In this document: piece after piece, positions 17,248-38,127 of the stretch
Numbering within the stretch: the stretch's first letter is position 1
How the letters are laid out: each line of letters starts with the position of its first letter
Assembly (NCBI GenBank): GCA_003224835.1
Contig: QHZX01000350.1
Span: 1-38,866 of the forward strand
Source: Acidobacteriota bacterium
Lineage (GTDB): Bacteria > Acidobacteriota > Terriglobia > Terriglobales > Acidobacteriaceae
Direction of reading: 5' to 3'
Length of the DNA stretch: 38,866 nt
Notes under the pieces: generated by a model
Told to the model about the DNA's origin: nothing
The model's database searches: none
What the model saw: the letters and a program-made list of their open reading frames with translations, nothing else
Made by a program: the position numbers and the translations under genes

Positions 17248-17278
17248 TCGCCAGCTTGGCATTGTCTGCGGAATCTAA

Positions 17279-17986: not shown

Positions 17987-18017
17987 CAGCCATCACCATG
18001 GGTTAATCAAAAGTACT

Positions 18018-18815
18018 TTATCCGGCACCAGCAGCGCTCCCTTTGGCTCGTGAACGCGCCCCAGTAAAGTCGGCCATCCGGCCTTTCAGCCGCATCACTG
18101 CTACTGAGTGAATCTGTGATACACGAGACTCACCCACTCCTATCGCAATGCCGATCTCCTTCATGGTAAGTTCCTCAAAGTAGTAGAGTCTCACCACCAT
18201 GCTTTCCTTCTGTGGAAGTTCGGAAATTGCCTGCTCTAACAAACCCCTCGTCTCCGATTCCAGACAGTGCAGCAACGGGTCATCACCGTTATGGCTTGAA
18301 AGCTGTTCGGTCATATCCACCTCCGCCCCGCCGTCCGGCGAGATAAACCGCAGACTGGAGATTTCAAGCGCGTTTATGTCGCGAAGCAGTCTGTGCATCT
18401 CTGGGAGCGTGATTCGTAGTTCAAGGGCTAATTCGGGTTCGGTGGGGTGCCGACCGAGTGCAGCCTGTAATTTGTTATGCGCCTCTTCAATTCGGCGTGA
18501 TTGACGCCGTAGGTCGCGCGGGCTCCAGTCAAGCTCACGCAGGCTGTCGAGGATCGCGCCACGAATCCGAAACTTCGCGTAAGACCCGAACTGTACGTGT
18601 TTGCTACTGTCAAATTTTCGGAACGCGTCCATCAGCCCCACGACTCCGGCATTGACCAGGTCTTCTATTGGAATATGCCGTGGCAACCTGTCGTGAATCC
18701 GCCGCGCCTGGTACTGCACAAGCGGCAAATGCTCGGTGAGTAGATTTTGCCGCTCCTCTTCGTTCGCTGCGGTGCAATCGCCGTTTGGTGATTGAGGAGG
18801 TCGACGGGTCGACAT
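18018..18815 (-). CDS. Group-3 alternative sigma factor, FliA/WhiG (sigma-28) family
   Basis: DLVNAGVVGLMDAFRKFDSSKHVQFGSYAKFRIRGAILDSLRELDWSPRDLRR (regions 2.x, FliA-type DW.PR), region 3 (LGRHPTEPELALEL) and the region 4.2 helix-turn-helix (LTMKEIGIAIGVGESRVSQIHSVAVMRLK). ATG at 18815; an in-frame TTG at 18839 is an alternative start. Confidence 0.8.
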   Translation of the reverse strand: MSTRRPPQSPNGDCTAANEEERQNLLTEHLPLVQYQARRIHDRLPRHIPIEDLVNAGVVGLMDAFRKFDSSKHVQFGSYAKFRIRGAILDSLRELDWSPRDLRRQSRRIEEAHNKLQAALGRHPTEPELALELRITLPEMHRLLRDINALEISSLRFISPDGGAEVDMTEQLSSHNGDDPLLHCLESETRGLLEQAISELPQKESMVVRLYYFEELTMKEIGIAIGVGESRVSQIHSVAVMRLKGRMADFTGARSRAKGSAAGAG

Positions 18816-18981
18816 ACATCTCGATTCAACCCTCGACAAATAAGAAAACGATTAAAAGAGAGTTAAGAGATTTTGTTCGAGCCGAAATATTTCCTATTAG
18901 GGGAATGTGCGCGAGGGAAGTCCGGAATCGGCAATCAATACGTACTTGAAAAAGGATGGATGGTGGGAAATTTCTGCCGTG

Positions 18982-19665
18982 CTAGATTGCGTTTGCTTTC
19001 GCACTGAGCTCGTAACCGACACCACGAACCGTATGAATCAGGCGCCGGCCAAATGCCTGGTCCACTTTGCGGCGTAAGTAGTTCACGTACACGTCGATGA
19101 CATTTGTGCCCGTGTCGAACGATAAGTTCCACACGTGCTCGATGATCATGGTGCGCGAGACTCGCCGCCCCGCGTTCAACATCAAATATTCGAGCAGGCC
19201 GAACTCTTTGGAGGTCAGTTCGATCCGCTTGCCCGCGCGCTCGACCTTTCGTTCCACGCGGTCGAGTTTAAGATCTGCCACTGTCAGTACCGAAGCCGCA
19301 GGCAGATGACTTCTTCGCAAGAGCGCACGGATCCTAGCCGAAAGCTCCGAATAGGAAAAAGGTTTGCCCATGTAATCGTCGGCGCCAAGATCAAGGCATT
19401 GCACCCGGTCTTCCACCCGGTTTCTGCTGGTCAAGACGAGAATCGGCATGCTAGGTTTGCGTGGCCGCAGGTGCCGCAGAATTGCCACACCGTCCATTCG
19501 CGGCAGATTCAAATCCAGCATGAATAGGTCATAGTCTAGTTCGGTTGCCATGGCCTTGGCCTGTTCGCCATCGTGGGTCACATCTACAGCGTAATGTTCG
19601 GCTTCGAGCCCTTTCCTCACAAAACTCGCTAAGGCAGGGTCGTCTTCAGCAATCAGTACACGCAT
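18982..19665 (-). CDS. OmpR/PhoB-family response regulator (CusR/CopR-like winged helix)
   Basis: Canonical receiver (LIAEDD, LFMLDLNLP, ILVLTS, GADDYMGKPF) plus a winged-helix output (LTSKEFGLLEYL, TNVIDVYVNYLRRKVD, IHTVRGVGY). ATG at 19665. No histidine kinase gene is adjacent. Confidence 0.9.
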   Translation of the reverse strand: MRVLIAEDDPALASFVRKGLEAEHYAVDVTHDGEQAKAMATELDYDLFMLDLNLPRMDGVAILRHLRPRKPSMPILVLTSRNRVEDRVQCLDLGADDYMGKPFSYSELSARIRALLRRSHLPAASVLTVADLKLDRVERKVERAGKRIELTSKEFGLLEYLMLNAGRRVSRTMIIEHVWNLSFDTGTNVIDVYVNYLRRKVDQAFGRRLIHTVRGVGYELSAKANAI

Positions 19666-19802
19666 AAACAATAGTTAGAGTCGATTCATTCTTAGAGACA
19701 GTTAGGTTGTGAAGCAAGGCACGAATGGCGCTGGAATCGAGCGGAACCTTGCATGGCACTCGCCATTTACCTCAGTAACACTGGAGGATAGGGAATTAGC
19801 TC

Positions 19803-21047
19803 ATGGAGCCTTGGAACAAACGATTTCTGCAATCTGTATTTCTTCCCGGGGGCGCGATCCTGCTCGGCGCCTATCTGCTCCTTGGACCGGGAAAGATCAA
19901 TCCCTCTGTATATGGAGTGAGGTTCTTCTATTTTGCGGTTTTCATTGCTGCCCTGGTATTAGCATGGCGTTTCCATACGACCCGCATTTTTCTTTCCGCT
20001 GTTGTGCTGCTGCTGGCCCATCACGCACTCGAGTTTTTTACCCAAGGCCACATTACTCCTTCAGGTCCGGGCCGCATTGCGTTTGAAACTATTGCTCTCC
20101 TGCTTCCCTTGAACTTCATCCTTCTTGCTTTTTTCCCGGAGCGTGGCTATCAGGGCCGGAGCTTGTTTTGGTTCCTGGCTCTGCTATTTTTTGAGTCAGT
20201 ACTGCTGGCCGCCGTGGCACGCCCAGATCAGCCCGCCCCCGAATTGCTACATGCTTCACCGCTGGCGTCGATGCATTGGCGGCTGCCACAGCCTGCGCTT
20301 CTGTTCTTTGTCATCGCTCTTATTTATTTGCTGGTGCGAATGGTTCGTTTTCAGAAGCCAACGATTATCGGGATGTTCTGGTCGTTAATTGCAATCTGGC
20401 TGGGGCTCAATGCCGGAGGAATAGGGAAGCTCGGCAGCGAATACTTCGGTGTAGCAGCACTCATTCTTGCCAGCTCCATCGTCGAGAATTCTTATTCCCT
20501 GGCTTACCGTGACGAACTCACCGGTTTAAGCTCGCGCCGCGCGTTTAACGACGCGTTACTGCGCCTGAAACCCCCATACGCCGTCGCCGCGGTCGATATC
20601 GACCACTTTAAAAACATCAATGACACCTATGGTCATGATGTAGGGGACCAAGTGCTGCGTATGGTTGCCTCCAAACTGGCGCGCGTCGGGGGTGGAGGTG
20701 ATCCCTTTCGTGTGGGGGGAGAGGAATTCCGGCTCAATATCGAAAGCTCCACGTTTCGCGTCCGCAGCGGTGACGAGCGTCGCAAAATCGAGCGCCCCAG
20801 TGACCGAAGGTTCCAACGGAAGAAGAGAGAGGCCCCTCGCCTGAGCGCTAATTCCTCCACCACGTTGTCCGTCACCGTTAGCATCGGAATCGGCGAATCT
20901 CAGTCGAAGCTGAGCTCGGATGAAATCATTAATCAGGCGGATAAGGCGCTCTATCGGGCGAAGCGAAGCGGAAGGAACCGCGTCGAGACCGGGATCCCGG
21001 AGAAAAAGATGTTGGGATTCGGGTCTAAAAAACCTAGACAGCCCTAG
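19803..21047 (+). CDS. Polytopic membrane sensor with C-terminal GGDEF domain (putative diguanylate cyclase)
   Basis: About 220 aa of hydrophobic helices, then RDELTGLSSRRAF, VDIDHFKNINDTYGHDVGD, GGEEF (20715-20729), VTVSIGIG and ADKALYRAKRSGRNRV. The segment after GGEEF is atypical (see findings). Confidence 0.8.
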   Translation: MEPWNKRFLQSVFLPGGAILLGAYLLLGPGKINPSVYGVRFFYFAVFIAALVLAWRFHTTRIFLSAVVLLLAHHALEFFTQGHITPSGPGRIAFETIALLLPLNFILLAFFPERGYQGRSLFWFLALLFFESVLLAAVARPDQPAPELLHASPLASMHWRLPQPALLFFVIALIYLLVRMVRFQKPTIIGMFWSLIAIWLGLNAGGIGKLGSEYFGVAALILASSIVENSYSLAYRDELTGLSSRRAFNDALLRLKPPYAVAAVDIDHFKNINDTYGHDVGDQVLRMVASKLARVGGGGDPFRVGGEEFRLNIESSTFRVRSGDERRKIERPSDRRFQRKKREAPRLSANSSTTLSVTVSIGIGESQSKLSSDEIINQADKALYRAKRSGRNRVETGIPEKKMLGFGSKKPRQP

Positions 21048-25286: not shown

Positions 25287-27301
25287 CTAGTGTACGCGAT
25301 TATCAGGGTTTACGGTGCCCTCATGAGTAGGACCCGTGCCAGTTGTGTGCCTCGCCGTCGCTTCTATCGGTTGCTTCACCGGTTGAACCACGGCCAGCAA
25401 GAGATCGGCTTGAGGCGCCTTTGCCGTATCAGCTATCGCTAGTTGCTGCGCGCGCCAAGATTCGGGCGATTCCTCCGATTTGTCCAAGTAATCCAAGGCA
25501 GCCAAGCCGGCCGATCCCAGGTTGGAAAGCGCCTCGGATAGTGGCGCAATCTCGTGCAGGAGAAAGGATTGTTGGATAAGAGGCTTTAACTTCGAGTCGT
25601 TATCACGCCACGTTGAAAGTAATGCGCGAATTTGAGCTTCGGCGTCGTGGTCTTGATAATCGCTTTGGATGTACTTTTGTACCAGACTTTGAAAGTGCCT
25701 TCCGGTCTCACTCTCCGGATTGGCGACATCGATAAGCCGATTCAATGGCGCTCTGAAGTCCCAGGCCCCTTTTACGTTTTCAAAGCGGGCGTAATCCTTG
25801 ACTGGTTCAACCACATCTGCAAGGGAACGCAGCGCGGAGATGTCTTCGACTCCCGCCATTCGATGCAACATTGGATCCTCGTGCGATCGATGCGTCAGAC
25901 CCAGCCACTCAAGGCGCCAGCTCACCTCGTCAAGTCTCGTGTACATCGAATTGATGTCCTGCACTTCCTCAGGCGACCACAAACGTTCGGCAATGGCAGC
26001 TGTGCGTGGCCATATGCGCGAATCCATGTTCTCAGGACTGATCCACTCTCCCCACATGCAGGCCTCGCCTCCAACAATGCGATTCTTCTTCTCAGGAGAG
26101 AGAGAAGCCGCCGCGCCGGACATTGGATCGACGGCGTAGTGCCGTGAGGCCGGCCACATCAAATCGAGATAGTAGCCAAAGGAGAGCATGCCGCTGAAAC
26201 CTTGCTTCGCTGCCGCAGCCAACGATTCCTGACCACGCCATGACTGCACGACAATATTCTTCGGTAAATCCGGCCGGAGGATTTCATCCCATCCCACCAT
26301 CGTTTTGTGGTGCTTGCTGAGTATTTTTTCCAGATGGTGATTGAAGTAAGCCTGCAGGTCCTGATTGTTTTTCAAGCCGTGAGAATGCATGAAGGCCTGA
26401 ATCTTCGGGTTGTCGTCCCATGGCTTGCCGTTTACCTCGTCGCCGCCGATGTGAAAGTAGGCGTCCGGGAATAGCTTTCCCATCTCATCGACGAACTTGT
26501 CGAGGAACTTGTACGTCCTCTCCTGTGTCGGATCCATCACTGTGTAAACCCCGCCTGGTTCAATCTTCTAAGTGCCCGGAGTGCTCGCCAGTTCGGGATA
26601 ACCAACGAACCATGAACGGCTGTGCGGCGTGATATCTACTGACCATCAGATCCCATCTCGTGCAGCTTCGGAAATTGCTTGCTCTCGACGCGGAAGCCTT
26701 CATCGTCAGAAAGGTGAAGATGCAGAACATTCATCTTCACCGCCGCCATTCCATCGATGTTGCGCTCGAGCACATCCACGGGAATGTAATGACGGCCCAT
26801 ATCGATCAGCAACCCACGCCAGGCGAAGCGGGGTTGGTCTTTGATTGTGACTGCAGGAATCGAAAATCCGTCCGTGCTGGTTTCGACTAGCTGCAAGAAT
26901 GTTTGCAGGCCATGCAATATACCGAGCGGATTTGTGGCCGTGAGCTTCGCGCCGGATTCGCTTATGGTGAGTTCGTAAGATTCGTCTTCGCCGAGTTTTT
27001 CGACACTCTCACTTCCGTGTTGCGCTTGAATTACGAGAGTTGCAGCGACTCCCTTCGCTGCAGTGGAATAAAGTCGCATTCCGGTCCGGTGGGAGAGATC
27101 GGCGACAAATCGTTGAACGCCGCGTTCCAGCGTGCCATCGCGATACCCCGAAACCGCAACCGAAAATGATTGGTTAATCAGGAGATGACCCGTCCCAAGT
27201 TGCACTCTGGACGGCATTGGCATGAGATTGAGTTGCGGAGGTGCCTGACCTGCGGCAAATGTCGCAACCATAAGAAGGAGCACAGCGATCGGGGTTCGCA
27301 T
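25287..27301 (-). pseudogene. Disrupted GH20 beta-N-acetylhexosaminidase
   Basis: ORF 26636-27301 encodes the signal peptide, the GH20b domain and the start of the catalytic barrel (FAWRGLLIDMGRHY, MNVLHLHLSDDEGFRVE), ending ...GSDGQ*. ORF 25287-26540 continues it (HIGGDEV catalytic pair, WGEW). Between them the downstream frame reads WSVDITPHSRSWFVGYPELASTPGT*KIEPGGVYTVMDP, with an in-frame TAG at 26568-26570 and a frame change near 26636-26645. The roughly 25-aa YYT...VVPE segment normally found before D(M/I)PGH is missing. Confidence 0.75.
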
Positions 27302-27701
27302 GGATAAGTAAAGAACGCCTCAACTTCAAGTTTGTGGAATTACTATGTTGCTCTACGCTTCGAAAACCAGACCTCGCAGTCTATACCCACTCAACGTGTA
27401 CCGGAAGATTAGTTCGGGGTTCGATTAGCCCTTGGAATCTGGTCACTTGATTCCAACAGCTGAGCGGTCCAGGTGGCTCGCTTCTTCCCGCAGAAGTTCG
27501 CAACACACCAGCAGACTAGGCCAGGCGAAATTGCCCACTTCAGATTGGCTAGGTGACGTTCGTAATCTATCGGAAATTACGCCGCACCCTAATATTAAAG
27601 ATAACTACGCACACCCGCGGGTAGCCGTCTCAACTGTTCGATTACAGACATTGAGTGAGGCACCTCCGAAATGTGCTTGCTCCGATCGCGAAGGGGTACA
27701 A

Positions 27702-28943
27702 ATGAAGTGTCGTGTAATTGCTGTGCTTGGCACACGGCCCGAGGCGATCAAGCTTGCATTGGTCATTGACCAGTTACGCCGGCGCTCAGATGAGTTCGAC
27801 ACTGCGGTAATACATACCGGACAGCATCGGACAATGCTGGACAACGCTCTCCAACTTTTCAAGATCAAGCCCGACTTCGACCTTGACGTGATGCGTCCCA
27901 ACCAGACGCTCAACTCTCTTACCGTCCGCGTACTTGATACGGTCGAAAATGCCTGTCGGCGTTTCGAGCCCAACATGATGCTCGTACAAGGTGATACAAC
28001 AACTGCCTTCGCTTCCGCGCTCGCGGCCTATTACTCCAAAATTCCTGTGGGTCACGTCGAGGCCGGTTTGCGAAGCCATGATATTTACAATCCCTTTCCC
28101 GAAGAGGCCAACCGCCGATGTGTTTCGGTGCTCACCGGCATTCATTTCGCCCCGACCGCGTTATCGCGAGACAAACTTCTCGCCGAGGGTGTACCTAACG
28201 AGCAGATCGTAGTCACCGGCAATACAGTTGTTGACACCCTGCGGGCACTCAGTAATGCGCCGCACTCCTGGGAAAACACTCCCCTGCAGAACATTCCTAC
28301 AGAGGGCTACCGCTTAATTCTGGTTACTTCGCACAGGCGTGAATCCCTGGGCGCAGATCAGGAGCATATGTGCCTTGCCTTAAAAGATCTGGTAGCAAAG
28401 CATCCTGACATTCGCGTCATTTACCCAGTGCACATGAACCCAAATGTGCGCAGCACGGTAAATGCCATTTTGGAAAACACCGAGCGCATTCACCTTACTG
28501 AGCCGCTCGACTACATCACCTTTGTCAGCTTACTCAAGAAATGCTTTCTAGTACTGACTGACTCTGGCGGAATCCAGGAAGAAGCTCCGACCTTTGGCAA
28601 GCCGGTGCTGGTATTACGCCGGGTGACCGAGCGGCCAGAGGCGTCAATGTTTGGGATGTCCAAGATCATTGGAATGTCGCGCGAAAGTATTGTGAATGAG
28701 ACTTCTGCCTTACTGACCAACCAGGACACATATCTGGATATGTCGGAAGGCGACAACCCATACGGTGACGGGAGGGCGTCGGAAAGAATTGTTGAGGCGG
28801 TATCCCGGTGGTTTCAGGGCAAAACGCCACTTCTCGATGCCAGTCAGGAGTTCAAGTTACCGCCTCGGTCAGAGCAGCGCCGGCGCAAAACCGACTCCGT
28901 AGAAATACCAGTTGCAGCAGCCGCTAAAGCAGGAGGGCATTGA
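27702..28943 (+). CDS. wecB: UDP-N-acetylglucosamine 2-epimerase (non-hydrolysing), WecB/MnaA family
   Basis: From the ATG at 27702 (AAGGGG RBS at 27691-27696): MKCRVIAVLGTRPEAIKLA, HTGQHR, VQGDTTTAF, HVEAGLRS, PFPEE.NR, LTDSGGIQEEAP, GDG.AS.RI. The ORF is open from 27432, but the upstream 90 codons do not look coding. A basic/Ala-rich C-terminal tail of about 35 aa is extra. Confidence 0.9.
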   Translation: MKCRVIAVLGTRPEAIKLALVIDQLRRRSDEFDTAVIHTGQHRTMLDNALQLFKIKPDFDLDVMRPNQTLNSLTVRVLDTVENACRRFEPNMMLVQGDTTTAFASALAAYYSKIPVGHVEAGLRSHDIYNPFPEEANRRCVSVLTGIHFAPTALSRDKLLAEGVPNEQIVVTGNTVVDTLRALSNAPHSWENTPLQNIPTEGYRLILVTSHRRESLGADQEHMCLALKDLVAKHPDIRVIYPVHMNPNVRSTVNAILENTERIHLTEPLDYITFVSLLKKCFLVLTDSGGIQEEAPTFGKPVLVLRRVTERPEASMFGMSKIIGMSRESIVNETSALLTNQDTYLDMSEGDNPYGDGRASERIVEAVSRWFQGKTPLLDASQEFKLPPRSEQRRRKTDSVEIPVAAAAKAGGH

Positions 28944-28980
28944 GTCCGGTGTTTCTGTCGAGCGGCGGCACTTACATTGA

Positions 28981-30222
28981 ATGGTCTACTTACTCTACTC
29001 TATCGTTGGTGTCATATGTATTTACACCGCCCGCCATTACTGGTTCACGCTGAACCGGCTATTCGGATTTCAACGCCACCCGTACATTGATATTGATACT
29101 GCTGACTGGCCTCAAGTCACCGTTTTAGTAGCGGCTCACAACGAAGAAAAAGTCATAGCGAACATTCTATCGGCGTTAATGACCGTAAATTATCCACAAG
29201 ACAAAATGCTGGTCATGCCCGTGAATGATCGGTCTAAAGACAGAACGCGACAAATTATCGACAAGTTCGTAAAAGACTTTCCGGGTCGCATACGTCCTTT
29301 TCACCGCACCAGTGGCAAACCCGGAAAAGCGGCAGCGTTGAAAGACGCAATGGAACTGATCGCGACCGAAGTGACCCTGATCTTCGACGCTGACTATATA
29401 CCTGGCGCCGGCCTGATCAAACAATTAGTCGCGCCCTTCTTTGATCCCGAAGTAGGTGGCGTTATGGGCCGCGTTGTACCGCTGAACTGTGGCACCAATT
29501 TGCTTACACGTCTTCTCGATCTGGAACGCTCAGGTGGATACCAGGTAGATCAGCAAGCTCGCATGAATCTGCGGCTCGTGCCGCAGCATGGCGGTACTGT
29601 GGCGGGCGTCCGGCTGAGTGCGCTGCGTGAAATCGGTGGCTGGGATGACACGACTTTAACCGAAGATACCGATCTTACATATCGGCTCCTGCTTCATGGC
29701 TGGAAAACCGCCTATCAGAACCGCTCGGAGTGTTATGAAGAGGTTCCGGAAACCTGGTCCGTGCGAATCAAGCAGATCATGCGCTGGGCCAAGGGCCACA
29801 ACCAAGCAATGATGACTTACACCGTGCGCCTGCTTTTCGGAAAGCATTTAGCGACTTTCCGCGAGCGGATCGACGGCGCATTGCTTTTGGGCGTCTACAT
29901 CATGGCTCCGGTCACGATTCTCGGTTGGGTTTTTGCTTTGATCCTGTTCTACCGGGGAGTGGCGCCGTTCAACGGCATCGTCGCGCTTCTGAGTATCACG
30001 ACTTATGCAGCGGTCGGTAACTTCGCGGCGTTTTTTGAAATTGCTGCGGCCGTGCGTTTGGATGGAAATCGTAATCGTCTGGCTGTTCTGCCATTCCTTG
30101 CATTGGGTTTTGTGGTCAGCATCTTTTCCGTTTCTCGTGCTTCCATATCGCAAGTCTATGGTTACCTCACGAAGGCTGAGTTGCACTGGGACAAAACTGA
30201 ACGTTTCCGGACGGCGCCTTGA
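28981..30222 (+). CDS. Membrane-embedded processive family-2 glycosyltransferase (PgaC/IcaA/NodC-like polysaccharide synthase)
   Basis: N-terminal TM helix, VLVAAHNEEKVI, NDRSKDRT, DAD (29386-29394), GGTVAGVRLSAL, TED (29659-29667) and QIMRW (QxxRW, 29773-29787). Several C-terminal TM helices follow. Confidence 0.88.
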   Translation: MVYLLYSIVGVICIYTARHYWFTLNRLFGFQRHPYIDIDTADWPQVTVLVAAHNEEKVIANILSALMTVNYPQDKMLVMPVNDRSKDRTRQIIDKFVKDFPGRIRPFHRTSGKPGKAAALKDAMELIATEVTLIFDADYIPGAGLIKQLVAPFFDPEVGGVMGRVVPLNCGTNLLTRLLDLERSGGYQVDQQARMNLRLVPQHGGTVAGVRLSALREIGGWDDTTLTEDTDLTYRLLLHGWKTAYQNRSECYEEVPETWSVRIKQIMRWAKGHNQAMMTYTVRLLFGKHLATFRERIDGALLLGVYIMAPVTILGWVFALILFYRGVAPFNGIVALLSITTYAAVGNFAAFFEIAAAVRLDGNRNRLAVLPFLALGFVVSIFSVSRASISQVYGYLTKAELHWDKTERFRTAP

Positions 30223-30230
30223 ATACCTAC

Positions 30231-31286
30231 ATGGCGGTCGCGAGTCTCGTGATGTTGACCGGCGTCCTGCTTACGGTGCCTCTAATTCCCGCATTTAAAG
30301 AGGTGCGCCGCAAGACAGATGCTGAGCCTTTGAACGTGATCCAGCGGCACGCCGGCGACATCCGTCACTTTGCGCACAGTTTTGCCGAAGTCATACAGGA
30401 ATTGAAACCAGTGCTGGAGCGCTGTCAGCGTTCTGGCGCGGGGGCACGTGGAGTGCTGGCCGGCGGCAGCGAATACCTGGTCGTGGGGAACTCAAAGAAC
30501 ATACCAGGCCTTGTGAAACAAGGCGAAGCTTTCATGTGCTCCACAGTCGTTGCTTTCGTGGCAGAGTTTGTCTGTCCCGGATCAGTAATCTTCGGCCAAG
30601 AAATCTATGCTCACCAGCGCTTCACCGGTGGCGCACACAACCAATACCGCGCGATATTGGGAGAGAACGATGTGTCCTTGGGTCCTGCGAGCACGATATT
30701 GCGGTGGGCCCACTCCGAGAAAGTACTTACTGCCGCAGCGCGCTGTCATCTTTATGGGCGAATTTCGGCAGCGCAGCTGATCCGTGTGGAGCAAGGTTGC
30801 ACGTTTTTGCGTATCAACGCTCCGCGTATTGAGCTTGGCACTCCGCTCTCAGCAAAGGAAAGCGTAGGAGTATCGAACAACGCAGTTTCTGGCAGACACC
30901 CTGGCCGACTTCTTTATGACGGTGACTTCGAAATTCCTGCTGGCGAAATCATCCACAACAACATTGTTACTCGGGGCAGATTAGTTATTCGCGCAGGCGC
31001 GCGCGTGGAAGGAAGTGTTAAGAGTAACAAAGACATGCTCCTGGAAGACAGAGTAACTGTCGAAGGCAGCGTCATCAGTGCTGAACGGATGCTAATCGGG
31101 CGGAACTGCGTTGTTCATGGGCCTGTGATCGCGGAACGAAAAATGGTCATTCGAACTGGCACACATTGCGGTGATCCACAGGAAGCTACCACGGTCAGCT
31201 CTCCCGAAATCGAAGTTGAAGAAGGTGTGCTGATTTTTGGCACTCTTTGGGCGCGACAATCCGGCACGGTAGTGGGACGGCAATGA
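30231..31286 (+). CDS. Membrane-anchored beta-helix repeat protein (bactofilin-like; hexapeptide-repeat fold is the alternative)
   Basis: One N-terminal hydrophobic helix (AVASLVMLTGVLLTVPLIPAF). C-terminal repeats IVTRGRLVIRAGARVEGSVKSNKDMLLEDRVTVEGSVISAERMLIGRNCVVHGPVIAERKMVIRTGTHCG (about 30963-31170). An in-frame TTG at 30219 overlaps the GT2 stop (TTGA), an alternative to the ATG at 30231. Confidence 0.6.
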   Translation: MAVASLVMLTGVLLTVPLIPAFKEVRRKTDAEPLNVIQRHAGDIRHFAHSFAEVIQELKPVLERCQRSGAGARGVLAGGSEYLVVGNSKNIPGLVKQGEAFMCSTVVAFVAEFVCPGSVIFGQEIYAHQRFTGGAHNQYRAILGENDVSLGPASTILRWAHSEKVLTAAARCHLYGRISAAQLIRVEQGCTFLRINAPRIELGTPLSAKESVGVSNNAVSGRHPGRLLYDGDFEIPAGEIIHNNIVTRGRLVIRAGARVEGSVKSNKDMLLEDRVTVEGSVISAERMLIGRNCVVHGPVIAERKMVIRTGTHCGDPQEATTVSSPEIEVEEGVLIFGTLWARQSGTVVGRQ

Positions 31287-33142
31287 AGCCACGAAAGCTC
31301 ATCTACTTTGTTTCCGCGACGCTGGGCTTAGTTCTTATCGTCTCTCTGTGGGCCGTCCGCGAGCGGCTGGAGTTCAGCAGTGACCGCATGATTCTTCTTG
31401 TACCGGACGGCATGAGCCAATCGGATCCAAGAGTGACGATGTGGCTCGACGCCGCAAGTGAAGAAGGTTTGCACGTCAGTGCGGTTCACGATTCTGAGTT
31501 TCTGCGTCCTGTGTTCAGCCAGGCCAGAACCGCAGGAGTCATTCTTCCGGATTCTATTCATCAACGCGCCAGCGATGCTTTTCTTGCAAGCTTGAAAACC
31601 TTTGTCGCAGATGGTGGAAAGCTCCTGCTCGTGTACGACGCGGGCACATTGCTGCCCAACGGCGGCTACTCACCAAAACAGTCACGGCTAACTGACCTTG
31701 CCGGCGTGTCCTACAGCCTCTATGACACCCTGGGTGATAAGACGATGCAGTGGAGCGTGATCAGCGGGCTTGATAGCACTTTTGATGAACTCGAAGTCCC
31801 GCCTGGCAAGTATTATCCCTTTCGTCCTGGCGTAATGACATCGGGTGCAGCGCCATCCGATGCTCCTGCATTTCGTGAAACTGAGCTTCGTCGTTACAAG
31901 TACGGAGATCTTGAGTATCCGAGTTTTGTAACCTCGGGCACTTACGATGGCAAGGTTTTATTACATTCCAGCGCCGGCACAGTAGCGGGAGAACACCCGT
32001 ATCAAAAAGGATCGGTCCTATTCGTCAATTTGCCGCTCTCGTACTTAAAGGGCAAAACCGATGGGTTGATGTTGCACGGATTTCTTAAATACTTCGCACT
32101 GCGCACGATGGCCCTGCCTCGGATGCTCACAGTACCGGACGGCATTGGCGGACTGGTTCTGAATTGGCATGTGGATTCGAATGCATCCATTAAGCCTATG
32201 CAGGAGATAGATTCGTGGGGACTGCTGAAGCAGGGACCTTACTCCATCCATATAACAGCGGGTCCGGATTCGACGGAACCAGGCGACCACCGCGGCTTCG
32301 ACCTGGAAGGTAATTTGATCGGCCAAACATTCGTACAGAAGTATCTCGCACTGGGGTACACGATTGGCAGCCATGGCGGTTGGATTCACGACTATTTTGC
32401 TAGCCATGTTGATAAAGATGATCCCAAAAGCCTCGAGAAATACTTGGCGTTGAACAAAGCTGCACTGGAGAGAGTAACTGGCACAACGGTAGCAGAATAC
32501 TCTGCTCCGGATGGCAATCAGCCTATGTGGGTCACGCAGTGGTTGGATGCGCATGGCTTCGTCGCTTACTACTTTACCGGCGATTCAGGAATGGGACCGA
32601 CACAGGGTTACAGGTATGGAATTCGTGAAGGTCACAATATTTGGGCATTTCCCATTCTTCATTTGGATCGAGCCGCAGCCTTCGAAGAGTTCGGCGAGGA
32701 CGGATACTCGACTGACGAAGTTGAGGGATGGCTGGCGGCTATCACGAATTTTGCCACAGAGCACCACGTGGTGCGGTTGGTTTACTTCCACCCATCCGGA
32801 ATTTTGGATTATCACGATGTCATCGAACGCTGGCTTGTGATGACAGGAGCAGCACGCGACAACCACACCTTTCGCTGGTACACGATGACGCAAATAGCAA
32901 ACTTTCTCAACGATCGCAAAAACGTGCAATGGAGAACCGCCGAAAGCGATGGTGTGCTGAAGATCACGGCCTCGCATCCGCGAAATTTGGCGCATTTTGC
33001 ATGGCAAATTTCCGCAGTCCAGTACACACAGCCGCAAATTACACGTGGAAATGGCGTAGTTCAGATGGACGGCAGTAGCTGGATAGTAGTCGCACAAGCA
33101 GGCAACGAGCTGGAATTCGAAAGCCGAGTACGTCACCAATGA
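31283..33142 (+). CDS. Membrane-anchored two-domain protein, C-terminal polysaccharide-deacetylase-like (PgaB/CE4-like) domain
   Basis: The ATG at 31283 overlaps the previous stop (ATGA). One TM helix (LIYFVSATLGLVLIVSLWAV). The N-terminal domain of about 280 aa has no recognisable motif. C-terminal candidate metal/catalytic motifs are NWHVDSN (32162-32182), HGGWIH (32372-32389, the same spacing as I recall for the PgaB His pair) and YSAPDGN (32498-32518). The assignment was made by eye only. Confidence 0.5.
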   Translation: MKPRKLIYFVSATLGLVLIVSLWAVRERLEFSSDRMILLVPDGMSQSDPRVTMWLDAASEEGLHVSAVHDSEFLRPVFSQARTAGVILPDSIHQRASDAFLASLKTFVADGGKLLLVYDAGTLLPNGGYSPKQSRLTDLAGVSYSLYDTLGDKTMQWSVISGLDSTFDELEVPPGKYYPFRPGVMTSGAAPSDAPAFRETELRRYKYGDLEYPSFVTSGTYDGKVLLHSSAGTVAGEHPYQKGSVLFVNLPLSYLKGKTDGLMLHGFLKYFALRTMALPRMLTVPDGIGGLVLNWHVDSNASIKPMQEIDSWGLLKQGPYSIHITAGPDSTEPGDHRGFDLEGNLIGQTFVQKYLALGYTIGSHGGWIHDYFASHVDKDDPKSLEKYLALNKAALERVTGTTVAEYSAPDGNQPMWVTQWLDAHGFVAYYFTGDSGMGPTQGYRYGIREGHNIWAFPILHLDRAAAFEEFGEDGYSTDEVEGWLAAITNFATEHHVVRLVYFHPSGILDYHDVIERWLVMTGAARDNHTFRWYTMTQIANFLNDRKNVQWRTAESDGVLKITASHPRNLAHFAWQISAVQYTQPQITRGNGVVQMDGSSWIVVAQAGNELEFESRVRHQ

Positions 33143-34002
33143 CAACTAAAATGCAAAGCCTAACACTTCTCATGAAACTAGCGGCGGTTGTCCTCGTCGC
33201 AACGCGAGCGACCGGTCAGGTTACGTCTTCTCCTCGGCCGGAGCAAAGTTCAGCGCTTGTCGCCTCAACCGTGACGGTCGCGCCTGAAAAGCACATCTTG
33301 ACCGATTACGTGGAAATCGGCAGCAGTGCTTTTCAGCTGACAAACGGCTTTGGCCCCTGGAACGGTGGTTATGTCCGCGGCTCAGTGGCTGCGGGAAACG
33401 ACATTCTGAATGGCGAAGTTTCCGGGCAGCACGAGTTTGGGGATTCAGGCGCTTACTTCGCGATTGGCGACACTCATAACTTCGGCGCTAGCTCCTATGC
33501 TTCTCTTACACTCGGCTCCAGCGAGGGAGGCTTCTTTTTGCCGCGTCTTCGCGGAGATGCATTCTTCAGCCATAAATGGATGGCTCGAAAGCAACTCATT
33601 ACGACAGCAGGGTTTGGTTACTATGAGGCAAAAGACCCGCACCGGGACCATAGCTTCTTCGTGGGAACTACCTATTACTTCGGCAAACCGTGGATCCTGG
33701 AGGATGGAGTTCGTTTCAATGTTAGCAATCCCGGCAAGGTGTTTTCTCCTTCAGGGTTTCTGGCGCTCACACAAGGAAGAAATAAACAGCATTACGTCGT
33801 CCTCCGCTTGGGTTATGGAGAAGAAGCGTATCAGCTGATTGGGCCTGCGAGCGAGTTGAGCGACTTTCGCAGCGAGACGGCGACAGTCACATGGCGCCAG
33901 TGGATAGGCCAGAACTGGGGAATTAACTGGGTTGCGGATTATTACGGCAACCCTTACTACAAAAGGGCGGGCACGACCTTTGGGTTCTTCAAGGAGTTTT
34001 GA
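33139..34002 (+). CDS. Outer-membrane beta-barrel protein (candidate polysaccharide export porin)
   Basis: The ATG at 33139 overlaps the previous stop (ATGA). Signal peptide MTTKMQSLTLLMKLAAVVLVATRATGQ. Alternating-hydrophobic strands rich in G/Y/F. The C-terminal ...GFFKEF ends in Phe, as in typical OMP sorting signals. Confidence 0.6.
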   Translation: MTTKMQSLTLLMKLAAVVLVATRATGQVTSSPRPEQSSALVASTVTVAPEKHILTDYVEIGSSAFQLTNGFGPWNGGYVRGSVAAGNDILNGEVSGQHEFGDSGAYFAIGDTHNFGASSYASLTLGSSEGGFFLPRLRGDAFFSHKWMARKQLITTAGFGYYEAKDPHRDHSFFVGTTYYFGKPWILEDGVRFNVSNPGKVFSPSGFLALTQGRNKQHYVVLRLGYGEEAYQLIGPASELSDFRSETATVTWRQWIGQNWGINWVADYYGNPYYKRAGTTFGFFKEF

Positions 34003-34815
34003 GTGAGCAGCGTTGCGAAGAAACCAAACCTCAGCATTCCCGATCTTATCCGCTTCCGTGGGCATCGGGGCGGCATCATTCCCATGCACCGCGCTCTTGC
34101 CCGCTTGGAGTACGGCCTCGCCGAGATGTCCGGCTCTATCGCTCTCACAGTCATAATCCTGTTCACATGGCTAAAATTTATTCCGTACATATGTGTGTTC
34201 TGGCAACGAATATTTCTTCTGGGATTGCATTATCTGCCGCTATCGGCGGTATTGACCACGAGTCCCCGTCACCTCGGACGTCTGCTCCGTTTTGACCTAC
34301 CGTATTTTCAGATCGACGGAGTCCTGCCCGACCCTGTTTTGTGGGAAGTGACTTGCGCGGTTACGTTGGCCATTTTTGCAATGACATTTCTTCTTCCACC
34401 AAAACTAATTCCTTTGATCTATGCATTGCGCGGAGGGCTGTTCGTACAGTTAAGCGCCCTGGCATATTTCGCCTTTCGCGCCGCACAATTTCCCTACAGT
34501 CCCAACGACTATTTACAAGCCTTGATAATGACGGGACTTGCTTTAGTCTCGACGATTCCCATACTGTTCTGCCTCACTTACTATGTTTTCCATTTTTCTT
34601 TTTTTAAGAAAGCCTTCCTCACTGTTTTGACAATGGGTTACCTGTGCCTGTTCTTGCCGGTTCAAGTGTTGCTGCAAGCGCTTATAATTCAAAAAAGCGT
34701 GCTGTTCATGCCTGTTCTCTATCTCATCTGTGGCATGCCGCTCGATGTCCTCATCGTAGTCGCTTTGTACTCCTGGGGCATGACCTGGAAATTCACCGAA
34801 TCTGCACCGCACTGA
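34003..34815 (+). CDS. Polytopic inner-membrane protein of unknown function (about 6 TM helices)
   Basis: The GTG at 34003 directly abuts the previous TGA (34000-34002). Multiple long hydrophobic segments (IALTVIILFTWLKFIPYICVFW, VTCAVTLAIFAMTFLL, LFVQLSALAYFAF, LIMTGLALVSTIPILFCLTYYVF, MGYLCLFLPVQVLLQALII, LICGMPLDVLIVVALYSW). The start codon is uncertain. Confidence 0.6.
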   Translation: MSSVAKKPNLSIPDLIRFRGHRGGIIPMHRALARLEYGLAEMSGSIALTVIILFTWLKFIPYICVFWQRIFLLGLHYLPLSAVLTTSPRHLGRLLRFDLPYFQIDGVLPDPVLWEVTCAVTLAIFAMTFLLPPKLIPLIYALRGGLFVQLSALAYFAFRAAQFPYSPNDYLQALIMTGLALVSTIPILFCLTYYVFHFSFFKKAFLTVLTMGYLCLFLPVQVLLQALIIQKSVLFMPVLYLICGMPLDVLIVVALYSWGMTWKFTESAPH

Positions 34816-35183: not shown

Positions 35184-35507
35184 ATGAAGCGTTATGGTTC
35201 GGTCATTGGAGTGAGGCCCGAAGCACTCCAGGAATACAAGAAGTACCACTCTGAAGTTTGGCCGGAAGTCCTGGAGATGATTAGAAAGTGCAACATTCGT
35301 AATTATTCCATTTTCCTCAAAGACGACTTTCTGTTCGGATACTTGGAATACCACGGGACTGACTTCCAGGCGGACATGGCGAAAATGGCGGCTGATCCCA
35401 AGACGCAGGAGTGGTGGAAAATCATGGGGCCGATGCAACGTCCGCTCGAATCTCGCGCTAAAGGCGAATGGTGGGCGAGCATGGAAGAAGTGTTTCACCT
35501 CGATTAA
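35184..35507 (+). CDS. L-rhamnose mutarotase (RhaM) family sugar mutarotase
   Basis: 107 aa. MKRYGSVIGVRPEALQEYKKYHSEVWPEVLEMIRKCNIRNYSIFL...WWKIMGPMQ...W..MEEVFHLD matches the RhaM family from end to end. Confidence 0.85.
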   Translation: MKRYGSVIGVRPEALQEYKKYHSEVWPEVLEMIRKCNIRNYSIFLKDDFLFGYLEYHGTDFQADMAKMAADPKTQEWWKIMGPMQRPLESRAKGEWWASMEEVFHLD

Positions 35508-35555
35508 GTCATTGTGTTGCAGCGTATCTAACTCGCATGTAGCGATGGAGATCCA

Positions 35556-37028
35556 ATGAAAGGATTTTTCGCTTCGGTCATACTCCTTGGTTTAGCAAGC
35601 GCGCCATTATTCGCCCAGACCTACCAGCCAAACTGGGACTCGGTCGACAAGCGGCCGACGCCGGCCTGGTTCAGTGACGCGAAGTTTGGAATTTTCATTC
35701 ACTGGGGCACCTATTCCGTTCCGGCTTATGCTCCTGTCCTTCCCGGCAAACTTGCTTACGCCGAGTGGTACTGGAATGCGTTGACGAATGGCAAGAACAA
35801 TCCGAAAGCCGATGAGCTGCAGAAAGGAACCTGGGCATTTCATCAGAAGGTGTATGGCGCGGACTTTCCGTATCAGGATTTTGCGCCGCAGTTTAAGGCA
35901 GAGTTATTCGATCCGGACCATTGGGCAGATGTGTTCGCGCGATCCGGCGCAAAGTATGTCGCGCTGACCTCGAAGCATCACGAGGGCTTTGCGCTGTGGC
36001 CCAGTAAAGAAGCTTCAGCAACCTGGGGACGTCCTTGGAATGCGATGGAGATCGGTCCCAAGCGGGATTTGCTCGGCGATCTCTCCCAGGCTGTTCGTCG
36101 CAAAGGGCTGCGCATGGGCGTCTACTATTCGCTTTACGAGTGGTATAACCCGCTTTGGCTTTATGACAAGCCGCGCTACGTGCGCGAGCACATGTTCCCC
36201 CAATTCAAGGACCTGGTCACTCACTACAAGCCGGCGATTATCTTCAGCGATGGTGAGTGGGAGATGACTTCGGCCGATTGGCACAGCGCTGAACTGCTGG
36301 CGTGGCTGTTCAACGAATCACCGGTTAAGGACGAAGTGGTTGTGGACGACCGTTGGGGCAGCGACACTCGCCATAAACATGGCGGTTACTGGACGACGGA
36401 ATACACGGCTGGCATGAGCGGCATTGATCATCCTTGGGAAGAGAGCCGTGGCATGGGCGTGAGCTATGGATACAACCGTGCGGAAGATCTCAGCATTTAT
36501 CACACTGGCAGAGAACTGCTGTTCATCCTGGTGGACACGGTGAGCCGCGGCGGTAACCTTCTGCTTGATATTGGTCCCAGGGCCGACGGCACAATCCCCG
36601 TGATTATGGAAGAGCGGCTCACAGAAATGGGAGACTGGCTGAAGATCAACGGCGAGGCCATCTACGGGACGAAACCCTGGAAGAACTCGCGTCAGTGGAC
36701 GGCAGGAGAAGTCCAGAAAGTCGAATACAACAAAGAGTATTCATCCGCATACGATGTGACCAAGTTGATCGATAAGCCGGCGGAAGGAAGGGCTTCGATC
36801 GAGGCTTTCTTTACGGTGAAGGGAAGCGACCTCTACGCCATCCTGCCGCGCTGGACGGGCCACAACCTTGTGATCAAAGATGTGAATGCCGCCAGGGGAG
36901 TGAGCCTTCTGGGTTCGAGCGCGCCATTGAAGTTCAGGGCGTCGAAGGCAGGATTGTCGGTTGAACTTCCGGACCTTCCCGAAGATCTGCGACCGCAGCC
37001 GGCATGGGTTTTGAAGATCAGCCAATAA
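35556..37028 (+). CDS. Secreted alpha-L-fucosidase, GH29
   Basis: Signal peptide. Motifs WFSDAKFGIFIHWGTYSVPAY, KYVALTSKHHEGFALWPS and IIFSDGEW. C-terminal beta-sandwich. Confidence 0.9.
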   Translation: MKGFFASVILLGLASAPLFAQTYQPNWDSVDKRPTPAWFSDAKFGIFIHWGTYSVPAYAPVLPGKLAYAEWYWNALTNGKNNPKADELQKGTWAFHQKVYGADFPYQDFAPQFKAELFDPDHWADVFARSGAKYVALTSKHHEGFALWPSKEASATWGRPWNAMEIGPKRDLLGDLSQAVRRKGLRMGVYYSLYEWYNPLWLYDKPRYVREHMFPQFKDLVTHYKPAIIFSDGEWEMTSADWHSAELLAWLFNESPVKDEVVVDDRWGSDTRHKHGGYWTTEYTAGMSGIDHPWEESRGMGVSYGYNRAEDLSIYHTGRELLFILVDTVSRGGNLLLDIGPRADGTIPVIMEERLTEMGDWLKINGEAIYGTKPWKNSRQWTAGEVQKVEYNKEYSSAYDVTKLIDKPAEGRASIEAFFTVKGSDLYAILPRWTGHNLVIKDVNAARGVSLLGSSAPLKFRASKAGLSVELPDLPEDLRPQPAWVLKISQ

Positions 37029-37095
37029 CGAATTCGGCAAGCGAGAACATTGCCTCGCATCCGAGAAGAAAGTAAATGCAGAAATCTATTACGAA

Positions 37096-38127
37096 TTGGA
37101 GCCGTGCCGCAAGGTGAAGGCGCTGGTAATCAGAGGACCCGGGGAAGCCACGATCGAGTCGGTGCCGGAACCCAAACAGGTTGACGGGAATCTGCTGTTG
37201 AAGGTGCGGATGGTCGGCCTCTGTGGCACAGACTTAAATTCGTTTCGTGGTAAGAATCCGCTGGTTACTTTTCCACGAATTCCTGGGCACGAGGTGGCAG
37301 CGACAATTGTTTCGTCTCACAAGACCGATCCAGCTCTACATGCCGGCGCAAACATTGCAGTCTCCCCGTACACGAACTGCGGACAGTGCGCCTCCTGTAG
37401 GCGCGGCCGTTCCAATGCCTGCCAGTTCAACCAGACGCTCGGAGTACAAAGAGACGGTGCGCTCAGCGAGTTCATCGTCATGCCACCTGAAAATCTCTAC
37501 GTTGCAGACCTCACGTTAAAGGAATTATGCCTGGTTGAACCCTTGACCGTGGGGTTTCATGCGGTTGCGCGGGCACGAATAACAGCCGATGACGTGGTTG
37601 CGGTTTTCGGTTGCGGCGGAGTTGGACTTGGTGCCATTGCCGGGGCCAGCGCTCGTGGAGCGGTGACGATCTGCGTTGATGTGGATGATCAAAAGCTTGA
37701 ACTTGCTCAAAAAGCAGGCGGCACTCACAAGATCCAAAGTGCGCGCGAGCCCCTTCATGAGAGACTGCTGGGACTGACAGACGGACGTGGGCCTGACGTG
37801 ATCATTGAGGCTGTAGGCACTCCACAAACCTTTCGTGCTGCGGTGGAAGAGGTAGCATTTACCGGACGTGTTGTGTACATCGGCTACGCCAAAGACACTG
37901 TGAGTTACGAAACGCGATACTTCGTACAGAAGGAGTTGGACATTCTGGGATCCCGAAACGCTCAGCCAGAGGACTTTCGCGCTGTGATCAAGCTTCTGGA
38001 AGATGGAAAATTTCCCGTTGCGGAGGCAATAAGCTCAATTGTATCGATTGAGGACGTGCCGAGAGCGTTGCAGTCGTGGAGCAAAAATCCGGCCAAGGTC
38101 AAAAAGATCATGGTTCGCTTGGACTGA
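37096..38127 (+). CDS. Zinc-binding medium-chain alcohol/polyol dehydrogenase
   Basis: GLCGTDL, GHEVAATIV (catalytic Zn), CGQCASCRRGRSNAC (structural Zn Cys cluster) and VFGCGGVGLGA (Rossmann). The likely real start is the GTG at 37114 (KALVIRGPGE). Confidence 0.85.
   Translation: MEPCRKVKALVIRGPGEATIESVPEPKQVDGNLLLKVRMVGLCGTDLNSFRGKNPLVTFPRIPGHEVAATIVSSHKTDPALHAGANIAVSPYTNCGQCASCRRGRSNACQFNQTLGVQRDGALSEFIVMPPENLYVADLTLKELCLVEPLTVGFHAVARARITADDVVAVFGCGGVGLGAIAGASARGAVTICVDVDDQKLELAQKAGGTHKIQSAREPLHERLLGLTDGRGPDVIIEAVGTPQTFRAAVEEVAFTGRVVYIGYAKDTVSYETRYFVQKELDILGSRNAQPEDFRAVIKLLEDGKFPVAEAISSIVSIEDVPRALQSWSKNPAKVKKIMVRLD

Follow-up and report, generated by a model that had tools for sequence, protein, structure and literature searches.

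The six-gene operon

The stretch of DNA considered here, which we call the window, comprises 38,866 nucleotides (nt) of an Acidobacteriota bacterium of the order Terriglobales (GenBank assembly GCA_003224835.1, contig QHZX01000350.1, positions 1 to 38,866 of the forward strand). Six genes on one strand, at 27702-34815, probably encode a synthase-dependent system for the secretion of an exopolysaccharide. A preliminary description had reported these six genes and their five junctions; a listing of open reading frames and a reading of the junctions reproduced every one of its coordinates. The genes are as follows.

27702..28943, + strand: gene 1, wecB; 413 amino acids (aa), cytoplasmic
28981..30222, + strand: gene 2, glycosyltransferase family 2 (GT2) synthase; 413 aa, membrane-embedded
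30219..31286, + strand: gene 3, beta-helix protein; 355 aa, membrane-anchored
31283..33142, + strand: gene 4, putative polysaccharide de-N-acetylase; 619 aa, type-II anchored, periplasmic
33139..34002, + strand: gene 5, YaiO-family outer-membrane beta-barrel; 287 aa
34003..34815, + strand: gene 6, inner-membrane protein; 270 aa, 6-7 hydrophobic helices

How closely are these genes joined? Beyond the gap of 37 nt between wecB and the GT2 gene, the reading frames run into one another. GT2 and gene 3 overlap by TTGA (30219-30222), gene 3 and gene 4 by ATGA (31283-31286), gene 4 and gene 5 again by ATGA (33139-33142), and the TGA of gene 5 abuts the GTG of gene 6 (TGAGTG at 34000-34005). The 4-nt overlaps recur in relatives of the operon: that of GT2 with the beta-helix gene in 68 of 70 loci, that of the beta-helix gene with the deacetylase gene in 72 of 76, and that of the deacetylase gene with yaiO in 44 of 72. 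The commonest wecB-GT2 gap is likewise 37 nt. We conclude that the six-gene arrangement is tightly coupled, far beyond chance. The longest open reading frame of wecB begins at 27432; the ATG at 27702 is backed by alignments of homologues and by a Shine-Dalgarno sequence, GAAGGGG. Base composition is even over the region and so gives no hint of a recent insertion.

Conservation of the gene set

Do the six genes travel together? To address this question we compared the six proteins by tblastn with 82 related loci, from Acidobacteriota metagenome-assembled genomes (MAGs) and related metagenome contigs; a scan with one genome for each species had returned 101 species, and the 80 loci fetched were all from Acidobacteriota MAGs. 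The same six-gene order was present, wherever the contig permits, in 81 of the 82 loci. Wherever the contig extends far enough upstream, wecB is the first gene of the operon (80 of 82 loci). On average WecB (about 80% identity) and GT2 (about 82%) are the most alike across the loci; gene 4 (about 59%), YaiO (57%), gene 6 (49%) and gene 3 (47%) vary more. No such conservation extends to the flanking genes, from which it follows that the six genes form an autonomous module.

Close relatives of gene 4 number more than 1,200 and come almost entirely from Terriglobales-type metagenomes, and a profile search placed its family in only 471 clusters among 1.84 billion cluster representatives. There are 493 relatives of gene 3. 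One gene 4 variant, of 821 aa, stands alone.

A more distant lineage, with a GC content of 43%, retains five of the six genes at 24-48% identity. In its locus L084 the order is a 257-aa membrane protein (E 1e-3 to gene 6), GT2 (48%), a 394-aa beta-helix protein (E 2e-28), the deacetylase (29%) and YaiO (30%), with no WecB. Two further metagenomic loci, L087 and L089, carry the set of the L084 type plus an extra protein of 313-346 aa before YaiO, and in L089 wecB is present and divergently transcribed.

The set also occurs outside the phylum. A tblastn search of plasmids found all six genes, rearranged and at 26-63% identity, on plasmid pMTS1 (NZ_AP025172, at about 207-216 kb) of the cultured betaproteobacterium Cupriavidus sp. 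P-10, in the order WecB (47%), deacetylase (41%), GT2 (63%) and beta-helix protein (26%) and then, after an additional periplasmic protein of 341 aa, YaiO (43%) and the membrane protein (35%). That the six genes co-occur here despite rearrangement is strong evidence that they are a functional unit. The preliminary description had reckoned with the chance that the genes are not co-conserved in relatives and had proposed a comparison of gene order; co-conservation proved strict, the order holding in Acidobacteriota (81 of 82 loci) and the set reappearing in Cupriavidus.

The extra secreted protein is encoded between yaiO and the beta-helix or deacetylase genes, at 13485-14510 in the Cupriavidus locus (L090), at 9823-10863 in L087 and at 8664-9605 in L089. 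It has no significant Pfam match; there is a hint (E 0.067) of an (alpha/alpha)6 glycoside-hydrolase family, and it may be a hydrolase absent from the Terriglobales version.

The synthase and its presumed membrane partner

The gene 2 product carries the motifs DAD136, TED227 and QIMRW265 in its GT-A domain, an N-terminal hydrophobic helix, and hydrophobic segments at about 297-385 that correspond to a C-terminal bundle of three or four transmembrane helices. It matches Pfam Glyco_tranf_2_3 with E 2.5e-32. Its top NCBIfam match is PgaC_IcaA (TIGR03937; 127.6 bits, E 5.8e-37, cut-off 422.3); CelA, BcsA and NodC (E 1e-16) are the next curated matches, and all lie far under their equivalog cut-offs. 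Chains of BcsA head the matches in the PDB (E 5e-14). Against the NfrB model NF012033 the protein reached 19.6 bits, in the C-terminal region only (cut-off 537), and it ends at residue 413 without an extra C-terminal domain. By these criteria gene 2 groups with the processive membrane synthases, the class to which the preliminary description had assigned it from its motifs and transmembrane bundle, and not with the non-processive soluble GT2 enzymes that were considered there as the alternative.

Across 73 species 259 of the 413 residues, all motifs included, are at least 97% conserved. The cytoplasmic tail HWDKTERFR (residues 402-410; window 30184-30210) is invariant across species and still reads WDKTARFR in a homologue of 48% identity.

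What might be the partner of this synthase? Gene 6 has no match in Pfam, NCBIfam or the PDB. Its 416 homologues are all from loci of the same operon type and it is always co-located with GT2, including in Cupriavidus (35% identity) and in the distant lineages, where it precedes GT2. We presume that it is a partner subunit of the synthase. Earlier it had been described as a six-helix protein rather than a small PgaD/IcaD; the multi-helix character and the lack of resemblance to PgaD/IcaD stand, the count being better given as six to seven hydrophobic segments. A cytoplasmic N-terminal motif, G-x-R-G-x2-I-x-M-H-R-A (residues 20-31, window 34060-34095; G20 R22 G23 ... M28 H29 R30 A31), is invariant across species. 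Both this motif and the tail of GT2 are rich in arginine, and they are candidate regulatory or ligand-binding sites.

The beta-helix protein

Gene 3 begins with a transmembrane helix (residues 3-19), followed by conserved membrane-proximal helices up to residue 72 and by two beta-helical blocks (76-206 and 230-352), in a confident AlphaFold2 (AF2) model (predicted local distance difference test, pLDDT, 87). The second block is bactofilin-like. The match to Pfam Bactofilin (PF04519) is marginal, at 30.8 bits with a cut-off of 27.9; most homologues match it as well and some fall under the cut-off. Among all PDB chains the gene 3 sequence had no significant match. On which side of the membrane does the helix lie? 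The sequence KEVRRK stands directly after the transmembrane helix, and in a distant homologue two transmembrane helices precede this motif, which is conserved there. By the positive-inside rule, and from the two-helix homologue, the bulk of the beta-helix is probably cytoplasmic. The preliminary description had placed a membrane-anchored beta-helix protein between synthase and deacetylase without assigning it a side; the anchor and position hold, and the protein can now be described as bactofilin-like and probably cytoplasmic.

An alternative is that gene 3 is a left-handed beta-helix (LbH) acyltransferase that would O- or N-acylate the polymer or its precursor, as YaiX of Escherichia coli might, rather than a cytoskeletal scaffold. 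It occupies the operon position of yaiX, directly after GT2, and matches YaiX by BLASTP with E 0.023; weak matches, at E 0.003-0.08 for LbH_EIF2B and E about 0.25 for GlmU and LpxD, point the same way, as does the name 'predicted acyltransferase (DUF342)' that some homologues bear at JGI. But Bactofilin is the sole match above threshold, and the repeat reads G-x-V-x-G-x-V..., typical of bactofilins and unlike the [LIV]-G-x4 hexapeptides of the acyltransferases. A Foldseek search of the PDB with the model gave generic beta-helix matches only, with no significant acyltransferase fold (E >0.4), so that bactofilin and LbH acyltransferase are not separable by that route. Repeat pattern and Pfam match thus favour a bactofilin-type helix, and we consider the acyltransferase improbable. 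That the protein serves as a scaffold is itself a tentative suggestion, on the doubtful side. A search of the full-text literature for a link between bactofilins and exopolysaccharide synthases found none, save a morphological remark on the cortical belt of Gluconacetobacter.

The deacetylase-like protein

Gene 4 itself matches no Pfam or NCBIfam family at E 0.01, save for a stray deacetylase match at E 0.006, and HMMER searches of all PDB chains with its sequence and its profile gave no significant similarity. What, then, is it? An AF2 model from 47 homologues (pLDDT 74.7; predicted template-modelling score, pTM, 0.80) places an alpha/beta/alpha domain resembling GH42M at about residues 35-275, following an N-terminal transmembrane helix (3-29) that anchors the protein. 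Next come a divergent (beta/alpha)7 carbohydrate-esterase domain (about 285-545, strands and helices alternating from about 290) and, at the C-terminus, a beta-sandwich (549-616). Foldseek matched the first domain in the PDB to the GATase1-like trimerization domains of GH42/GH164 and to STM3548 (E about 1e-6), and aligned gene 4 with human NDST1 (9f6z) over 587 columns with E 1.2e-6 and a low TM-score of 0.30. Below threshold, Pfam detects Polysacc_deac_1 in 45 of the 47 family members (best E 1e-5) and Glyco_hydro_42M in 34 (best E 4e-4), and more distant relatives give the same sub-threshold pattern. The N-terminal domain, which the preliminary description had called unrecognizable, is therefore recognizable by its fold; the deacetylase-like character that it noted is upheld.

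Human NDST1 combines a membrane anchor and an N-terminal, Rossmann-like domain with a (beta/alpha)7 deacetylase that is a homologue of the fungal Agd3; the active site of NDST1 has D320, H389 and H393 as metal ligands, D319 as the base and H529 as the acid (PMC10864358). PelA_DA of Bacillus cereus, a protein of 610 aa, has an alpha/beta/alpha carbohydrate-binding domain, a (beta/alpha)7 esterase with D262/D263, H350, H354 and H488 in the active site, and a C-terminal beta-sandwich (PMC13254593). In 98 homologues of gene 4 (23-47% identity) N294, H296, D298, D335, H364, H369, Y406, P409, Y501 and H503 are at least 90% conserved. Among these, H296, D298, H364, H369 and H503, at the C-terminal ends of predicted beta-strands, are candidate metal-binding or catalytic residues; D298, H364, H369 and H503, present in at least 91% of these divergent homologues, follow the order and spacing of the deacetylases when compared by position in the sequence. 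The H369-H503 spacing is 134 residues, against 136 in NDST1 (H393-H529) and 134 in PelA_DA (H354-H488). H460, which lies in an ILHLD motif, was an early candidate for the catalytic acid and was dropped: unlike H503 it is not conserved in distant homologues. Given the fold matches, the conserved residues and this spacing, gene 4 is a putative membrane-anchored periplasmic polysaccharide de-N-acetylase of the Agd3/NDST/PelA_DA architectural type.

Might the synthase and this deacetylase together produce a signal of the Nod-factor kind, GT2 making short chito-oligomers as NodC does, to be deacetylated in the manner of NodB and released? The pairing of the two enzymes and the NodC profile match are what such a signal would call for. 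NodB, however, is cytoplasmic, whereas this deacetylase is predicted to be periplasmic and anchored; no acyltransferase of the NodA type was found, and the operon includes a dedicated outer-membrane barrel and WecB. We regard a Nod-like product as very improbable.

The outer-membrane barrel

Gene 5 belongs to the YaiO family, with 167.1 bits against TIGR04390 OMP_YaiO_dom (cut-off 32) and 107.4 bits against Pfam YaiO PF19413 (E 1e-30, cut-off 23.9). It has a signal peptide and the C-terminal sequence FFKEF; all PDB chains were searched with its sequence without a significant match. A crude count of amphipathic periodicity gave ten segments and was judged unreliable. No tetratricopeptide repeat (TPR) was detected by Pfam or NCBIfam in any of the six proteins. 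The earlier statement that the barrel is small (287 aa) and has no TPR scaffold is accordingly borne out, and the protein now has a family. We presume that it is the outer-membrane exit pore.

Could the product instead be retained in the envelope, as a periplasmic or outer-membrane-anchored glycan or glycolipid, with YaiO as an anchor or an unrelated porin? The barrel is small, neither a hydrolase nor a cyclic di-GMP (c-di-GMP) receptor was found in the operon, and our search of the full-text literature found no functional work on YaiO, YaiP or YaiS. Yet across phyla YaiO keeps company with synthase and deacetylase, both by co-conservation and by translational coupling, yaiO of E. coli likewise sits behind a membrane GT2, and synthases with a QxxRW motif and a transmembrane bundle (BcsA, PgaC, HAS) are processive exporters. 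Retention in the envelope therefore appears unlikely.

WecB and the identity of the polymer

Which sugar would the synthase use? Against TIGR00236 wecB gene 1 scored 448.6 bits (cut-off 210.15) and against Pfam Epimerase_2 E 5e-112; the model of the hydrolysing NeuC gave only 88 bits (cut-off 236). On this profile evidence gene 1 is a bona fide non-hydrolysing UDP-N-acetylglucosamine (UDP-GlcNAc) 2-epimerase, WecB. In Terriglobales the gene lies within the operon; in Cupriavidus it adjoins the other genes, and in L089 it adjoins them in divergent orientation. From the same linkage to WecB, Junkermeier and Hengge argued that UDP-N-acetylmannosamine (UDP-ManNAc) is the substrate of NfrB (PMC8669469), and PssC of Listeria makes a ManNAc polymer (PMC13492145). 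The repeated genetic linkage of the synthase to WecB, taken with the Nfr and Listeria Pss precedents, inclines us by analogy, somewhat beyond even odds, to a polymer that contains ManNAc in preference to poly-N-acetylglucosamine (PNAG).

If the product were PNAG, the operon would be a divergent system of the pga/ica type: GT2 would make poly-beta-1,6-GlcNAc, gene 4 would correspond to PgaB/IcaB, YaiO to PgaA and gene 6 to PgaD, and WecB would serve another pathway. PgaC_IcaA is indeed the top NCBIfam match of GT2, and the two have in common the logic of a synthase joined by a deacetylase, a barrel and a further membrane subunit. But the score reaches 127.6 bits where the cut-off is 422, all 80 Terriglobales loci have WecB in translational linkage and a linkage recurs in Cupriavidus and L089, the plan of gene 4 is that of Agd3/PelA_DA/NDST and not the CE4+GH153 of PgaB, there is no TPR, and gene 6 is dissimilar to PgaD. 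We give a PNAG system a small chance. The parallel with pgaABCD/icaADBC that had been drawn at the outset thus survives as to the logic of the parts, and WecB favours a ManNAc polymer, as in Nfr and Pss, over PNAG.

Proposed mechanism

The identities of the genes, from profile or predicted fold and from motif conservation, and the functional unit, from coupling and co-conservation, bring us to the system as a whole. In overall kind the operon is likely to be a synthase-dependent machine that secretes an N-acetyl-hexosamine polymer. More fully, we read it, with a probability of about 0.68, as a self-contained system for the synthase-dependent secretion of an exopolysaccharide built of N-acetyl-hexosamine, most likely containing ManNAc and partly de-N-acetylated. 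As to substrate, deacetylase activity, pore function, contacts between the proteins and the role of the bactofilin-like protein, we would propose the following sequence. WecB would convert UDP-GlcNAc to UDP-ManNAc in the cytoplasm. GT2, probably in a complex with gene 6, would polymerize the sugar and thread the chain across the inner membrane. On the cytoplasmic face of that membrane gene 3 might scaffold, position or regulate the synthase. In the periplasm gene 4's alpha/beta/alpha domain would bind the nascent chain, and its metal-dependent (beta/alpha)7 domain would strip some of the N-acetyl groups, leaving a cationic polymer. The YaiO barrel would then provide passage through the outer membrane without a TPR scaffold such as PgaA, BcsC, PelB and AlgK/E have.

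One may go further and see here an unrecognized class of secretion machine, in which a TPR-less YaiO pore, a partner of 6-7 helices, a membrane-anchored enzyme like Agd3/PelA_DA and a bactofilin-like protein of the cytoplasm, by which the synthases would be arranged or gated, would build a matrix of partly deacetylated poly-ManNAc in soil Acidobacteria, which are abundant. In this full form the proposal is speculative, and we put it at somewhat worse than even.

What weighs against the secretion system? Among the 82 loci the exception to the common order, L033 (11800-14100, an Acidobacteriota MAG), has genes 1-4 followed by convergent, unrelated genes, and so is without genes 5 and 6; it is either a rearrangement or a mis-assembled contig. 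In two distant variants wecB is absent from the 8-10 kb examined. In gene 4 the first motif is N-x-H-x-D and not the canonical D-D, the position of the base being occupied by H296-V297 and not by Asp, and Polysacc_deac_1 scores 15.9 bits against a threshold of 23.1; for these two reasons the deacetylase domain could be inactive or of other specificity. The barrel, at about 230 residues, is smaller than the 16-18-stranded porins of known systems, and we know of no YaiO protein that has been shown to pass a polysaccharide. Neither a c-di-GMP receptor nor, in the Terriglobales version, a glycoside hydrolase was found in the operon, though both are usual in such systems. Finally, the strains that carry members of the family are all unstudied.

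Regulation and genomic neighbourhood

How might the operon be controlled? Two elements precede wecB.

27553..27566, + strand: upstream element GTGACGTTCGTAAT, direct repeat GTnAC-N5-GTAAY, here GTGAC-N5-GTAAT
27590-27595, + strand: TAATAT, a -10-like hexamer, 3' of GTGACGTTCGTAAT

Of 75 related loci, 39 have a repeat of this type in the 300 nt upstream of wecB; the background is 0.047 occurrences per 300 nt. Its median distance to the start codon of wecB is 156 nt, and about 150 nt here; at the same distance in relatives it is more than 10-fold enriched. The element resembles a site for a winged-helix regulator; it is a putative operator or promoter-proximal site, and repeat and hexamer together may make up the operator of a response regulator and a promoter. 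Generic scans for sigma-70 promoters and for terminators did no better than on shuffled sequence, and Rfam gave no riboswitch or other RNA family, c-di-GMP riboswitches included, in the whole window and the 5' region.

Domain searches found no PilZ, GIL, degenerate GGDEF or MshEN domain in the six proteins, as the preliminary description had said of PilZ and GGDEF; an unrecognized site is possible. A signalling cluster lies 6.6-10 kb upstream of the operon (window 17279-21047).

17279-17986, - strand: PilZ protein
18018-18839, - strand: sigma-70-family factor
18982-19671, - strand: OmpR-type response regulator
19803-21047, + strand: GGDEF protein

A link between this cluster and the operon is possible. 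Its PilZ protein is 42% identical to a PilZ protein 4 kb upstream of the operon in L001, a relative of 64% identity on a 2.1-Mb contig. There the surroundings (1700-4500 and 13640-18770) hold PilZ, PAS-GGDEF-EAL, two receiver-GGDEF, HAMP-GGDEF-EAL and a second PilZ protein. This context is the strongest local hint of c-di-GMP control and is not general: GGDEF, EAL or PilZ genes flank only about 10 of the 82 loci, and a c-di-GMP link through neighbours was dropped as a part of the system.

Divergent from the operon is a broken gene for a GH20 beta-N-acetylhexosaminidase (25287-27301, - strand). A frameshift and an in-frame stop separate its N-terminal part (26636-27301) from its catalytic part (25287-26540), and the two are read in different frames; either the gene is a pseudogene or the sequence contains an error. 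As a dispersin-like component of the operon it was rejected, since it is broken here and a GH20 gene adjoins the cluster in only 3 of the 82 related loci. Downstream, at 35184-38127, are genes for L-rhamnose mutarotase, alpha-L-fucosidase and a zinc alcohol dehydrogenase, and at the start of the window (264-8067) those for MreC, MreB, an aldehyde dehydrogenase, an aminotransferase and a phosphatase of the CpsB/CapC type; both groups are apparently unrelated.

Comparison with known systems

No routes to the polymers of a biofilm matrix are better understood than the synthase-dependent systems (cellulose, PNAG, alginate, Pel, Nfr), and few architectures are known. If our reading is correct, the present operon adds one with three unprecedented parts: the TPR-less YaiO pore, the bactofilin-like cytoplasmic subunit and the new membrane partner. 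With it the Agd3/NDST/PelA_DA deacetylase plan would reach a Gram-negative GT2 system, and the YaiO family, including the cryptic yaiS-yaiP-yaiX-yaiO of E. coli, would gain a first functional context. In acidic soils and peat Terriglobales are a dominant group and difficult to grow in culture, and their exopolysaccharides bear on soil aggregation and carbon retention. With the copy in Cupriavidus sp. P-10 the hypothesis can be tested in a genus that grows in culture and is likely to be amenable to genetics.

Has the set been described before? There is no Pfam or NCBIfam model for genes 4 and 6, and a search of the full-text literature did not find the six-gene set described. The preliminary description had raised a match to a characterized exopolysaccharide operon as an alternative; GT2 misses the cut-offs of both PgaC_IcaA and NfrB, and the literature search gave no match.

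With PgaABCD and IcaADBC the operon shares a membrane GT2 (D,D,D and QxxRW) with an additional subunit in the membrane, a de-N-acetylase in the periplasm, an outer-membrane barrel and a compact, coupled organization. The components themselves differ. GT2 falls far under the PgaC/IcaA equivalog cut-off; PgaB is a CE4+GH153 lipoprotein whereas gene 4 has a three-domain plan and a transmembrane, not a lipid, anchor; PgaA joins TPR to porin, as generic synthase-dependent systems join a barrel to a periplasmic TPR scaffold, while gene 5 is a YaiO barrel without TPR; PgaD and IcaD are small proteins of two helices and gene 6 has 270 aa and 6-7 helices. WecB and the bactofilin-like protein are additions, and there is no known c-di-GMP site.

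The deacetylases PelA_DA (CBM114-CE26), Agd3 of Aspergillus (CBM87-CE18) and NDST1, in its N-terminal and deacetylase domains, have the anchor, the alpha/beta/alpha domain and the distorted (beta/alpha)7 domain in common with gene 4, and PelA_DA also the C-terminal beta-sandwich and nearly the same length (610 against 619 aa). They differ in acting on alpha-1,4 GalNAc or GlcNAc polymers from non-GT2 machineries (Pel, GAG, heparan). Of the Pel system itself, PelF (a GT4), PelD, PelE, PelG and PelB/C were not detected in the six proteins, and the polymerase here is a GT2.

The NfrB-NfrA-YbcH system of E. coli has a GT2 linked to WecB, which implies a UDP-ManNAc donor, and an outer-membrane export protein (PMC8669469, PMC8669472). 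However, NfrB has a C-terminal MshEN domain that is missing from GT2 here, NfrA is a large protein of TPR and barrel, and Nfr includes no deacetylase, beta-helix protein or subunit like gene 6. Listeria PssA-E likewise has a GT2 that makes a ManNAc-based polymer, a ManNAc-Gal exopolysaccharide (PMC13492145). It is a Gram-positive system, with no outer-membrane component, and has a c-di-GMP receptor (PssE) and a BcsB-like subunit; its accessory proteins showed no homology to those described here.

The nearest genomic analogue that we found is yaiS-yaiP-yaiX-yaiO of E. coli K-12 (L083, NC_000913 380069-384616), a cryptic and uncharacterized cluster of the same logic. Its genes lie on one strand and encode an LmbE-type deacetylase, a membrane GT2, a hexapeptide acyltransferase (yaiX, broken by IS2) and YaiO. 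As in our operon, a membrane GT2 (YaiP, with DAD, VED and RxxRW; 25% identity, E 1.5e-9) is followed directly by a beta-helix protein, and a deacetylase and a terminal YaiO barrel complete the set. On the other hand, the deacetylase YaiS is small, cytoplasmic and of the LmbE type, the beta-helix protein YaiX is a genuine hexapeptide acyltransferase, and there is neither WecB nor a homologue of gene 6. As judged from sequence, the operon would work like Pga/Ica and like Nfr, and is a member of neither.

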